From Novosphingobium sp. (GTDB taxonomy: Bacteria > Pseudomonadota > Alphaproteobacteria > Sphingomonadales > Sphingomonadaceae): 64,000 nt of DNA. Made by a program: the position numbers and the translations under genes. The stretch is taken from positions 3,209-67,208 of the forward strand of contig JBFWSE010000002.1 in assembly GCA_050248535.1 (NCBI GenBank), given 5' to 3'. The first letter of the stretch is position 1. The number at the start of each line of letters is the position of its first letter. This document shows, in pieces, positions 48,822 through 52,145 of this stretch. The notes under the pieces are model-generated. The model did no database searches, was not told the DNA's origin, and saw nothing but the letters and a program-made list of their open reading frames with translations.

Positions 48822-49676
48822 TCAGGCGTTATAGATCAGCTTCATCCCCGGCTCGCTCCAGCGCGTTTTCACCAGTGCGCCGCGGTCCGAAAAAGTGATC
48901 CAGGCGTCCATCATATCCGCGCCGCCAAAGGCGATGTTGGTCACCAGCCGGTCATCCAGCGGCTCGGTGCTGACGTCGCCCGTGGGCGTCACCGTGGTAA
49001 TCGCCCCGGGCATCAGCGTGGCCACGCACACATTGCCCGAGGCCGCCATGGCGAGGCTGTCAAGCATGACCGGCCCCGGCGCGGTCGCCAGCCAGCGCGG
49101 TTGCTGCTCCTCGATCCGCCGGTCGAACGCATAGACCCGCGCCGAGAAGGTGTCGGCGGTATAGACCGTCGTCATGTCGGGCGAAATGCCGACGCCGTTA
49201 TAGCTGGTCGCCTTGCCGAAGATCCGGGTGATCGAGGAGCCGTCCGGCCGGGCGCAATAGAGCCCGCCGAAATATTTGGCCTCGGCGTCGTGGTTGCCCA
49301 GATCGGTGAACCACATGTTGCCGTCGCAATCGAACATCAGATCGTTGGGCGCGCCCAGTTCCTTGCCCTGGCAACTGTCATAGAGCCGCTCGACCTTGCC
49401 GGTGCCCAGATCGATCCGCTCGATCCGCCCCACTTCGACCGGCGAACCATCGTGCCCCATGCCGCCGCTGTTGCACACGTAAAGCGCCCCGTCCGGCCCG
49501 ATCGCCGCCCCGTTCGGCCCGCCTCCGGGCTCGGCGACCACTTCCTTGCGGCCGTGCCCCCAGCAGCGCGTAACCCGCTTGCCCATGATCTCGACCAGGA
49601 TCACCGAGCCGTCGGCCATGACGACAGGGCCTTCGGGGAAGGCGAGGTGTTCGGCGATGACTTCGATCTTGCGCAT
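48822..49676 (-). CDS. SMP-30/gluconolactonase family protein
   Basis: FPEGPV, GPNGAAIGPDG, PNDL, WFTD, YNGVGISPD, DSLAM, TNIAFGG. Confidence 0.93.
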   Translation of the reverse strand: MRKIEVIAEHLAFPEGPVVMADGSVILVEIMGKRVTRCWGHGRKEVVAEPGGGPNGAAIGPDGALYVCNSGGMGHDGSPVEVGRIERIDLGTGKVERLYDSCQGKELGAPNDLMFDCDGNMWFTDLGNHDAEAKYFGGLYCARPDGSSITRIFGKATSYNGVGISPDMTTVYTADTFSARVYAFDRRIEEQQPRWLATAPGPVMLDSLAMAASGNVCVATLMPGAITTVTPTGDVSTEPLDDRLVTNIAFGGADMMDAWITFSDRGALVKTRWSEPGMKLIYNA

Positions 49677-49825
49677 TTGTCCTCTCCGGTTCCGGGCGGG
49701 GGGTTAGTTGATGAAATACATGCACGGGAACGCATAACCGCACGGGATGCGCCAGTGAGCTGCAACGGGCGCGAGCGGCAGTATGACGCGGGCTTGCGAT
49801 GTAGGAAAGCCGAAAGCGTCCGGGG

Positions 49826-50119
49826 TCAGAGCAAGGACCCTTGCTGGCCGGTATCTTCCCGCCTGGCGCTTTTCAGCACCGAGGCATCCACCCAAGGAAT
49901 GTCAGGCCGCTTGTTCTGGAACAGCTCGGCCAGCGTCAGGATCTGCAGGCGCGGGTGCTTGCGGCCGGTATATTCGTTTTCCCACACGCCGACTGCGGCG
50001 GCTTCCTGTTCCATCGGGCGCGAGGGGGCGGCGGCGCAGATGAACACGCCGAACACCGCCTTTTCGCGCTCCATCGCCGAATGCAGGTCGCGGATCATGG
50101 TGACCGAGACATTTCGGCC
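49826..50119 (-). pseudogene. 3' remnant of an Mrr-like restriction endonuclease domain (as in DNA-methyltransferase fusions)
   Basis: GRNVSVTMIRDLHSAMEREKAVFGVFI...PMEQEAA...PRLQILTLAELF...RPDIP; no start or 5' part. Confidence 0.7.
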
Positions 50120-50366
50120 TGTTTGGAACCGGGCAATCGATGGCTTTGGCAACAAGGATCCAGGGAGGCGGCGAGCTACGCAATACGAGTCGCCTTGGGA
50201 TGTCTTGCATCCGGGGCGAAAGTTCGCCGAGAAACTGGCATCAAGCGGATTGGGCGCCGAGTTCTTCATTCAACGTATCGATGACTATTTCGCTGGTCGA
50301 CCATTAGCGAAGCTGCCCAAAGTGATCGCGGAACAAATTGAGGAGGAGCACGAAACCGGCGATTGA
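50112..50366 (+). pseudogene. 3' remnant of an Eco29kI-family (GIY-YIG) restriction endonuclease
   Basis: FRPVWNRAIDGFGNKDPG...SPWDVLHPGRKFAEKL...RIDDYF resembles the recalled Eco29kI C-terminus (KPLWN..DGFGNH.PG...WDVIHPGR); N-terminal part absent. Confidence 0.8.
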
Positions 50367-50416
50367 GGACTTCTCCACTATGCGCCGCGTTGAATGCCTG
50401 CATTGCCGCGAATTGG

Positions 50417-51133
50417 CTAGACCGCCAACCGTCCCCGCACCCCATCCAGCGCAGCCGCCGTCTCCGCCAGCAAGGCTTTCAGCCGCCGGTTTTCCGCTTC
50501 CAGCACCTGATCCCCGCGCCCGCCCAGCAAGCCGTGCAGGAACAGGCGCACGCTGGCTTCGATATGCCGCGCGAGCGCCGCCTCGTCGCGGGTGACGCCC
50601 CAGGCCGCATCGATGGCGGGACCGGTGACGAGATGCAGGAAGCCCTCCGCCGCCTCGCGCGCTTCGATCTGGCCCAGCCCGGCGCCCAGCCGCCGCTGGA
50701 ACAGACCGGCAAGGAACAGGATGGTCGGTTCGGTGCCCTGCTGGACATTGGTGGCGCCGACATCGGGCGAGCGGCCGCTTTCGGCATTGGTCAGCCGCAG
50801 CAGGCGCAGGCCCGCCGGGCTCATGATATTGGCCAGCAGGATTTCGCCGATGGCCAGCAGGCTCGATTCCAGATCGCCGGTTTCGGCTGCCTGCAGGCGC
50901 TCGACCGGAACGATCCATTCCTCGATCGCGCGCGTCAGGGCGGCCCTGAACAGCGCCTGCTTGTCACCATAGCGGGCATAGACCGTGCGCTTGGCCATGC
51001 CGGCCTGGGCGCAGATCGCATCGATGCTGGTACGCTCAAAACCCAGTTCGAGGAACAGGTCGAGCGCCACATCCAGCAGCTCTTCGTTCGACAGGCTTGG
51101 ACGGCCTGGCCGCCGGCGGGTCTGGACGTTCAT
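50417..51133 (-). CDS. TetR/AcrR-family regulator
   Basis: GRPS, LFLELGFERTSIDAICAQAGMAKRTVYARYGDKQALF. Confidence 0.94.
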   Translation of the reverse strand: MNVQTRRRPGRPSLSNEELLDVALDLFLELGFERTSIDAICAQAGMAKRTVYARYGDKQALFRAALTRAIEEWIVPVERLQAAETGDLESSLLAIGEILLANIMSPAGLRLLRLTNAESGRSPDVGATNVQQGTEPTILFLAGLFQRRLGAGLGQIEAREAAEGFLHLVTGPAIDAAWGVTRDEAALARHIEASVRLFLHGLLGGRGDQVLEAENRRLKALLAETAAALDGVRGRLAV

Positions 51134-51151
51134 GAGGCCACTCTGCCTTAA

Positions 51152-51245
51152 TGAAACGCCTTAGGCAACAAATTATCCGTGGGAATCGATATTTCAGCAC
51201 CATAGTCCCCCATTGCGCGCAGGATTGAAACGAGTAAGGTAACAA
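51152..51245. promoter_or_regulatory. Two 20-bp direct repeats, candidate TetR operators
   Basis: TGAAACGCCTTAGGCAACAA (51152-51171) and TGAAACGAGTAAGGTAACAA (51226-51245), 16/20 identical, in tetR/tauD divergent spacer. Confidence 0.55.
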
Positions 51246-51275
51246 TCAACGCGAGTCGCGAGAGTGGGGAGCGCC

Positions 51276-52145
51276 ATGGTCATGGCACTGGAAGTCGTCG
51301 ATCTGACGCCGGCCATCGGGTCGGAGCTGAAAGTCGCGAAGGCGCAACTGCTTTCGGGCGAATTGCGCGAAGATATCCGGGCGCTGCTGGTCAAACGCGG
51401 CGCGGTGGTGATCCGCGATGTCCATCCTGGCGACGAGGAACTGCGCCAGATCGCGCGCACCCTGGGCGATCTGCGCACCGGCGCGGTCAAGCGCGGGGCG
51501 GACGGCAAGGTGCTGAGCGAAGGCGACGAGGGGGTGATGAAAATCAGCCTTGATGCCGACATCAACCCCGATTACGCCCGCTTCCTGCCCGGCAATCACC
51601 TGTGGCACATGGACGGCACTTACGAGGAAGTGCCGCCATTCGCGACGCTGTTCACCCCCTATCGTCTGTCGAAAGAGGGCGGCGACACCATGTTCGCCAA
51701 TTGCTATGCCGCCTATGAAGACCTGCCGGCGGACGAACAGGCGCAGCTCGACGGGCTGGTCGCGGTCCATACCATGCCTTCCGCCCTGTTTCCGGCGATG
51801 CGCGACGTCACGGTCGAGGAATTCGCGCTGTGGCGCAGTTACCCCGAGCGGCGGCATCCGCTGGTCTGGCGGCACAAGTCGGGCCGCAAGTCGCTGGTGC
51901 TCAGCACTTCGGCCGCCTGGATCGAGGGCATGCATCCGGCCGAAAGCCACAACCTGCTGGCCCGCCTGATGGCCCATGCGACGCAGGACAAGTACACCTA
52001 CCGCCACAAGTGGCGGATGGGCGACCTGGCGATCTGGGACAATACCGGGACCATGCACCGGGTCATGGCCTACGACGCCGAAAGCCGCCGCGAATTTCAT
52101 CGTTGCACACTGAATGGAGAGGAGCCGATCCGGGCGGCGGCATAA
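51276..52145 (+). CDS. TauD/TfdA-family Fe(II)/2-oxoglutarate dioxygenase
   Basis: LTPAIG, WHMDG (HxD), GGDTMF, HPLVWRH, GDLAIWDNTGTMHR. Confidence 0.93.
   Translation: MVMALEVVDLTPAIGSELKVAKAQLLSGELREDIRALLVKRGAVVIRDVHPGDEELRQIARTLGDLRTGAVKRGADGKVLSEGDEGVMKISLDADINPDYARFLPGNHLWHMDGTYEEVPPFATLFTPYRLSKEGGDTMFANCYAAYEDLPADEQAQLDGLVAVHTMPSALFPAMRDVTVEEFALWRSYPERRHPLVWRHKSGRKSLVLSTSAAWIEGMHPAESHNLLARLMAHATQDKYTYRHKWRMGDLAIWDNTGTMHRVMAYDAESRREFHRCTLNGEEPIRAAA

Follow-up and report, generated by a model that had tools for sequence, protein, structure and literature searches.

Two headless gene ends joined back to back in a sphingomonad tetR-lactonase spacer, probably by a short-homology deletion

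Introduction

How does a bacterial chromosome come to hold the ends of two unrelated genes, joined back to back, with the beginning of neither, and does such a structure point to a hidden defence system? Decay by short-homology deletion is a common fate of restriction-modification systems. The window, i.e. the whole 64,000-nt stretch of DNA that was analysed, belongs to a member of the Sphingomonadaceae and carries such a structure in the 740-bp gap between a TetR-family regulator gene and an SGL-family lactonase gene, both encoded on the minus strand. Here, we ask from which genes the two ends came, how they were joined, and what was lost with them.

Results

The plus-strand tail

Two gene ends meet in the tetR-lactonase gap, one on each strand (Table 1). 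An initial annotation had described them as two uninterrupted, headless 3' tails joined back to back, and their sequence, frames and stops confirm this description.

Table 1. Features of the tetR-lactonase region (positions are those of the window)
Feature	Position	Strand	Description	Basis
SGL-family lactonase gene	48822..49676	-	284 aa; native flank	ORF; PF08450 on identical Logan contig
Lactonase upstream region	49677..49812		native, including conserved promoter-like stretch at ~49768-49810	similarity to relatives
3' remnant of beta-class N6/N4 DNA methyltransferase gene with C-terminal Mrr_cat-like domain (assigned)	49826..50119	-	97 codons + stop	relatives
Deletion joint (proposed)	50106..50119		14 nt, GAGACATTTCGGCC	E-T-F-R-P on + (nuclease), G-R-N-V-S on - (methyltransferase)
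3' remnant of Eco29kI-family GIY-YIG restriction endonuclease gene	50106..50366	+	86 codons + stop	Pfam, relatives
Spacer, nuclease stop to tetR stop	50367..50416		50 nt	similarity search
TetR-family regulator gene	50417..51133	-	238 aa; native flank	ORF; TetR_N + TetR_C_7 on identical Logan contigs

The plus-strand tail reads from ETFRPVWNRAIDGFGNKDPGRRR to EEEHETGD and its stop, free of internal stops and frameshifts. We found that it matches the Pfam family PF09517 (RE_Eco29kI) at 69.5 bits (cut-off 30.8; E 4e-19), with the match limited to profile positions 101-162 of 164, the C-terminal third of the model. Among the type II nuclease models of PADLOC, REase_II matches it at 1.4e-16, and NCBIfam assigns no family to this tail or to the one on the minus strand. 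Hence, the earlier call of an Eco29kI-like nuclease stands, with ~86 aa in place of the 84 aa claimed.

Close relatives of this tail are alphaproteobacterial, i.e. Xanthobacter flavus (82% identity), Terrihabitans (78%), Jiella (77%), the genome G425 (71%), and Sphingomonas, Sphingopyxis and Allosphingosinicella (70-73%), all much nearer than the Eco29kI-family genes of small Escherichia coli and Salmonella plasmids (43%, tblastn). Intact relatives are 230-238 aa long, and the tail ends at their natural stop. Unlike members of the R.Eco29kI/Cfr42I family (type IIP GIY-YIG enzymes that recognise CCGCGG), the window copy consists of only 86 of ~230 residues. In R.Eco29kI, mutagenesis placed Y49, Y76, R104, H108, E142 and N154 in the active site (PMC1952068). 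The tail starts seven residues ahead of the asparagine equivalent to N154, which lies in a P-x-W-N motif, and keeps this residue only; the equivalents of Y49, Y76, R104, H108 and E142 (the last being the E of G-E-N in relatives), together with everything upstream, are deleted. Judged by these residues, the plus-strand tail is a fragment without the GIY-YIG active site and not an enzyme.

The nuclease tail has a GC content of 54.7% and a GC3 of 0.58, against a GC3 of 0.83-0.87 in the flanking genes, and this low GC3 marks its foreign origin. As a possible trace of long residence, avoidance of CCGCGG was not distinctive, with an observed/expected ratio of 0.61 (rank 9 of 64 palindromes).

The minus-strand tail

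The minus-strand tail reads from GRNVSVTMIRDLHSAMEREK to QQGSLL and its stop, again free of internal stops and frameshifts. It had been taken for the Mrr-like end of a restriction gene. Its Pfam matches are weak and below cut-off (Mrr_cat, E 0.014; NA-iREase1, E 0.004), and the Mrr_cat match covers the second half of the catalytic-domain model. With this tail as query, phmmer returned 1214 hits among 1.84 billion representative proteins (best E 1.6e-42), and in plasmids tblastn matched the 3' ends of annotated DNA methyltransferase genes. In whole-genome searches, the full-length relatives were open frames of 540-616 aa, to which the tail is 76-81% identical within the family and 75-87% within the genus (81% to G201, E 8e-50; 80% to G231 and G619; 80-87% to G645). 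By Pfam, a full-length relative consists of N6_N4_Mtase at residues 23-355 followed by Mrr_cat at residues 390-478, the latter above its cut-off at 35.1 bits, and the plasmid homologues share this architecture.

Relative to these proteins, the window retains residues ~450-546 of ~546, with the stop codon where intact relatives have theirs. The tail begins just after an (E/S)-V-K-G-G motif: relatives read ...GADGGIDG...IVSVKGG followed directly by KNVSV..., and the window starts at G-R-N-V-S-V, past the D...(E/S)-x-K core. In relatives, residues 1-360 hold the methyltransferase motifs IV (DPPF) and I (FxGxG) and the target-recognition region. The window has none of them, its minus frame upstream of 50119 being the antisense of the nuclease tail. 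By homology, then, the minus-strand gene is a methyltransferase with a nuclease-like C-terminal domain and not a restriction gene. The earlier domain call was right; the gene to which it was attached is an N6/N4 methyltransferase of ~540 aa.

A stand-alone Mrr (~300 aa, N-terminal DNA-binding domain plus Mrr_cat) was considered as the source and rejected. The likeness to Mrr, a type IV, methylation-dependent enzyme, is a weak one to its catalytic-domain model (PF04471, Mrr_cat); every full-length relative examined carries an N-terminal N6_N4_Mtase domain, and none has the Mrr architecture. The acidic residue of (D/E)xK is a serine (VSVK) in most family members, and with this replacement the Mrr_cat-like domain may be inactive. 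Compared with beta-class methyltransferases (PF01555; solved relatives CcrM, 6pbd; M.MboIIA, 1g60; M.RsrI, 1eg2), the window lacks the methyltransferase domain. No PDB sequence matched the 97-aa tail, and our literature search returned no paper on the fused architecture of N6/N4 methyltransferase and C-terminal Mrr_cat.

The methyltransferase tail has a GC3 of 0.81. Full-length genes of this fused type are solitary, with no partner nuclease, and stand in housekeeping neighbourhoods (e.g. dcp, rpsL, mutL, uvrA, argG) that differ from genome to genome. The genome of the window has an intact 540-aa paralogue, 35% identical and with an Mrr_cat-like domain (C31:31085-32653), and an ordinary CcrM gene beside folP (contig C72).

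Among the best 150 cluster representatives of the 1214 phmmer matches, about nine tenths are short (63-260 aa), and many begin at the methionine of MIRDL, a striking surplus of C-terminal pieces over full-length proteins. These short database proteins are probably contig-end fragments and remnants.

The joint

Protein homology to the nuclease family starts at E-T-F-R-P (50106), where relatives read IETF(K/R)P and several exactly ETFRPVWNRAID. Protein homology to the methyltransferase family reaches G-R-N-V-S (50119), where relatives read GG(K/R/Q)NV(S/G/D)V. At the DNA level (blastn), methyltransferase similarity covers 49826-50113 and nuclease similarity 50093/50117-50239, with starts at 50093-50118 across relatives. 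Both homologies meet at one place, as first described; the stretch they share is 14 nt (50106-50119) and not the 8 nt (50112-50119) originally given.

We found natural sequences of each parental family within 1-3 nt of the 14-mer. At the position of the joint, the nuclease gene of Altererythrobacter sp. KTW20L (G309), from the same family as the organism of the window, reads GAGACTTTTCGGCC, and methyltransferase relatives read, in antisense, GAGACATTCTTGCC (locus L034) and GCCGACATTTTGGCC (locus L053). Over the wider 23 nt from 50097, 14 of 23 positions agree between a nuclease relative and the methyltransferase side of the window (our own count), and the core common to both parents would be GAGACATT. 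Relatives of both parents thus have a near-match to the joint sequence, and the microhomology would be anywhere from ~2 to 14 nt long. Since a blunt joint needs two to four motif residues to arise by chance on the antisense of the other gene, a crossover inside the short shared stretch would be much likelier.

The joint is reproduced at 100% identity in assemblies of two separate runs. From SRR27751816, a 10.4-kb contig that includes both native flanks was identical over the 8001 bp compared; from SRR27751815, a 1.35-kb contig (1354 bp, window 50022-51375) was identical across the joint. A search of the scar for flanking direct repeats, promoters and terminators gave nothing beyond chance.

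A deletion hotspot at the G-G-(K/R)-N-V codons was considered and rejected, the junctions of 59 remnants being spread over residues 271-506 without a peak. Two other sequences, L034 and P0014, break where the methyltransferase tail of the window breaks. P0014, a protein of the representative library, opens with ~45 N-terminal residues of ribosomal protein L27 and switches to the methyltransferase tail at AGRNVG. These codons coincide with those of the window breakpoint, and HAGxNVG of L27 resembles GGRNVG of the methyltransferase there. The P0014 joint may reflect a genuine deletion or chimerism of the contig.

The tetR-lactonase site in relatives

The flanks of the scar are native. The lactonase has orthologues of 67-91% identity in same-genus genomes, a tetR orthologue adjoins the lactonase gene in at least 10 of them, and the order tauD, tetR, lactonase is conserved in at least 10. 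Upstream of the lactonase gene, window positions 49768-49809 are 78% identical to the spacer of G533, and the motif GCTTTCCTAC is common to the window and metagenome locus L110. Since native upstream sequence is recognisable to ~49812, the foreign DNA begins between 49813 and 49825, i.e. no more than ~15 nt from the methyltransferase stop, and its other end lies 50 nt or less past the nuclease stop. The 50 nt from there to the tetR stop resemble neither the spacers in relatives nor the 3' flanks of the nuclease cassette described below. The scar probably leaves expression of the lactonase gene unchanged, because the conserved upstream region of this gene is kept.

We searched the site in 61 relatives, then in 251 same-genus genomes by their flanks, and in metagenome contigs by the lactonase protein. 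The spacer is empty in six same-genus species, at 37 bp in G023, about 126 bp in G533 (the closest relative, with a lactonase 91% identical in amino acids) and about 30-150 bp in G669, G516, G515 and G561. Four loci hold unrelated genes: G542, G630 and metagenome locus L135 have spacers of 1.8-3.7 kb with TrhO-like rhodanese, GST-like and kinase-like genes, and G614 has a spacer of about 5 kb that includes a P-type ATPase. Hence, the tetR-lactonase spacer is a variable spot in the genus. Genes for a methyltransferase or a nuclease occur in none of these spacers. None of the other species searched has the scar, and the undeleted arrangement was found in no genome or metagenome contig searched. 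The idea that relatives retain an intact, possibly undescribed multi-system island at this site finds no support in these six empty and four differently filled spacers.

The cassette in relatives and the missing halves

Like Eco29kI, the intact relatives of the window nuclease are paired with a C5-cytosine methyltransferase. In 27 of the 32 loci with a nuclease relative, vsr (TIGR00632), the C5-cytosine (m5C) methyltransferase gene (PF00145) and the nuclease gene follow one another in the same direction, the nuclease last, and the last two genes abut or overlap. The hosts of this cassette are Alphaproteobacteria, Acidobacteriota and Verrucomicrobiota, and its GC content is 55-62% in every host examined. 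The order is opposite to that of the prototype plasmid pECO29, in which the nuclease gene precedes the methyltransferase gene (PMC3039593). A nuclease in last place fits the window, where the nuclease tail lies at the outer edge of the block. The lost system would thus be a type II cassette of a familiar kind (vsr, m5C methyltransferase, nuclease) and not an undescribed one.

The partner methyltransferase of the Eco29kI-type gene is gone, as had been proposed: the C5-cytosine methyltransferase gene stands directly upstream of the nuclease gene in those 27 of 32 relatives, and none lies beside the nuclease tail. We searched the genome of the window for a second PF09517 piece, vsr, a related m5C methyltransferase and a head that matches the methyltransferase tail, and found none of these, an absence that is not absolute in a 225-contig draft (92% complete, 3% contamination). 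An inversion, in which the missing halves should still be present, was considered and rejected; the hit on C72 is the ordinary CcrM, and the protein on C31 is the 35% paralogue and not the head. Within the limits of a 92% complete draft, the absence of the missing halves therefore argues for deletion rather than inversion.

The two parental genes were adjacent in none of ~650 genomes (401 of the family, searched with each tail, and 251 of the genus, searched with both), nor in the 32 cassette loci with 10-kb flanks or four loci with 8-kb flanks. Likewise, none of the cassette loci examined has a fused methyltransferase gene within 8-10 kb.

Other decayed copies of both families were seen. In a metagenome-assembled genome (Proteobacteria bacterium OH_PBB_172; L092, 1-450), an in-frame fusion links the opening 18 codons of the m5C methyltransferase gene (MRAVELFAGAGGLGLGIS) to a nuclease tail that starts at NRAIDGFGNKDPG, just four codons downstream of the window breakpoint. 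Altererythrobacter sp. KTW20L (L101/L032) has an Eco29kI-type gene with a truncation at about residue 83, a frameshift close to its end, and neither vsr nor methyltransferase alongside, a third independent remnant. On the methyltransferase side, the closest database relative of the tail (P0003, 80%; L034, 438-1270) is itself wrecked, with 123 N-terminal aa, a gap, and a C-terminal part that has lost a further internal segment between two GG(K) motifs. In G239 (L048, 1295-1764), an out-of-frame joint connects the N-terminal 78 aa of the methyltransferase with its final ~85 aa. An intact cassette was seen in G425, where it adjoins genes for a 534-aa GHKL-ATPase-like protein and a 268-aa protein with an HNH motif (L030, 5371-8343); these two look like a further defence pair of the same island.

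Discussion

The scar was probably made from two foreign units by one microhomology-guided deletion of at least about 3.5 kb, and the ~600 bp from the tetR stop to the lactonase promoter region are likely a non-functional, horizontally acquired remnant. Before the deletion, two independent mobile units would have stood in the tetR-lactonase spacer, in divergent orientation. The minus strand would have carried a solitary beta-class N6/N4 methyltransferase gene of ~1.6 kb with its C-terminal Mrr_cat-like domain, and the plus strand the cassette of vsr, C5-cytosine methyltransferase and Eco29kI-type nuclease, the nuclease last. A single illegitimate recombination would then have used a stretch shared by chance between the methyltransferase in antisense and the nuclease in sense, with the core GAGACATT, up to the 14 nt of GAGACATTTCGGCC, and 14 of 23 nt more widely. 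It would have removed the first ~450 methyltransferase codons, both promoters, vsr, the m5C methyltransferase gene and the first ~137 nuclease codons, at least 1.35 + 0.41 + 1.18 + 0.44 kb plus intergenic DNA. From the scar alone, we infer that both units once stood together at this site; the single event behind the joint, and the set of genes lost, would follow from the same reconstruction.

The deletion looks recent on the scale of species divergence. Of the positions with at least 90% conservation among relatives, one of the 40 in the methyltransferase tail and none of the 24 in the nuclease tail differ in the window, no more than in intact relatives, and there are no stops or frameshifts across the 183 codons of both tails. 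With at most one change at the ~144 non-synonymous sites of these positions, neutral divergence since inactivation would be below roughly 3% (our own estimate). Pristine tails and a shared joint thus support the recent microhomology-mediated deletion first proposed, with the single event as the inferred part of that claim.

It is rather unlikely that the scar arose in several steps, in which the cassette landed in or beside a resident or truncated methyltransferase gene and at least two deletions followed, the joint being the last. Both families have often decayed independently (L092, L101/G309, L034, L048), and the two units are not habitual neighbours, as such a history would have it. However, the scar has one joint only and both tails are otherwise pristine; the dual homology at the joint is what a single crossover would leave, and more events are less parsimonious.

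We give little credence to import of the ~600-bp block as a ready-made, dead unit, e.g. by transformation or a gene transfer agent and illegitimate insertion. Such an import would explain why the foreign DNA ends ~15 nt from one stop codon and 50 nt from the other, why a larger island left no trace, and why the GC3 values of the tails are so far apart (0.81 vs 0.58). Yet the block was found in none of the 251 genus genomes, 401 family genomes and 32 cassette loci, and a short non-homologous insertion needs two illegitimate joints, as against one for a deletion in situ.

It is very doubtful that the methyltransferase-Mrr_cat gene is a self-mobile single-gene element that enters intergenic sites in sphingomonads and is repeatedly purged, with remnants that are perhaps functional. 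Persisting C-terminal remnants might serve, for example, as a small DNA-binding or regulatory protein expressed off an upstream host gene; the evidence on this idea points to plain decay.

For the window itself, retention of the minus-strand remnant as a small working protein, read through from tetR, is highly improbable. The remnant shares its strand with tetR and the lactonase gene and has an intact frame (90 aa from the methionine of MIRDL, or 147 aa at 49826-50269), a gene caller called the 90-aa product, and databases abound in short C-terminal fragments of this family. Against this, the product would lack the D...(E/S)xK core of the domain, we found no Shine-Dalgarno-like sequence before either ATG and no promoter-like site, and the junctions of the 59 other remnants are scattered as in random decay or contig-end fragments. 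In general, the products of the scar are not expected to have a function, because the nuclease piece is without its active site and the methyltransferase piece is without both the methyltransferase domain and the nuclease-like core.

It is scarcely credible that a chimeric joint was created in assembling this genome from a metagenome: the draft is fragmented into 225 contigs with 3% contamination, but the assemblies of two runs agree fully over the joint, one of them over 8 kb with both native flanks, those flanks are collinear with relatives on either side, and a shared stretch of at most 14 exact nt would be too short to mislead a k-mer assembler.

A single short-homology deletion thus remains the preferred reading, and the result resembles other decay of restriction-modification systems, in that headless remnants are joined at a few shared bases in a conserved chromosomal site, as at the comparable loci L092, L101, L034 and L048. 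It differs in that the scar links two unrelated genes on opposite strands, both with their 3' ends pointing outwards.

The locus is an ordinary remnant of known gene families, of small consequence, and gives no sign of a hidden or new defence system. For annotation, it corrects a trap, in that the 'Mrr-like' tail comes from a methyltransferase gene. For the bacterium, it is a clean and precisely mapped case of restriction-modification gene loss, in which one short-homology deletion would have taken the catalytic part of a nuclease together with its protecting methyltransferase and left two outward-pointing gene ends.
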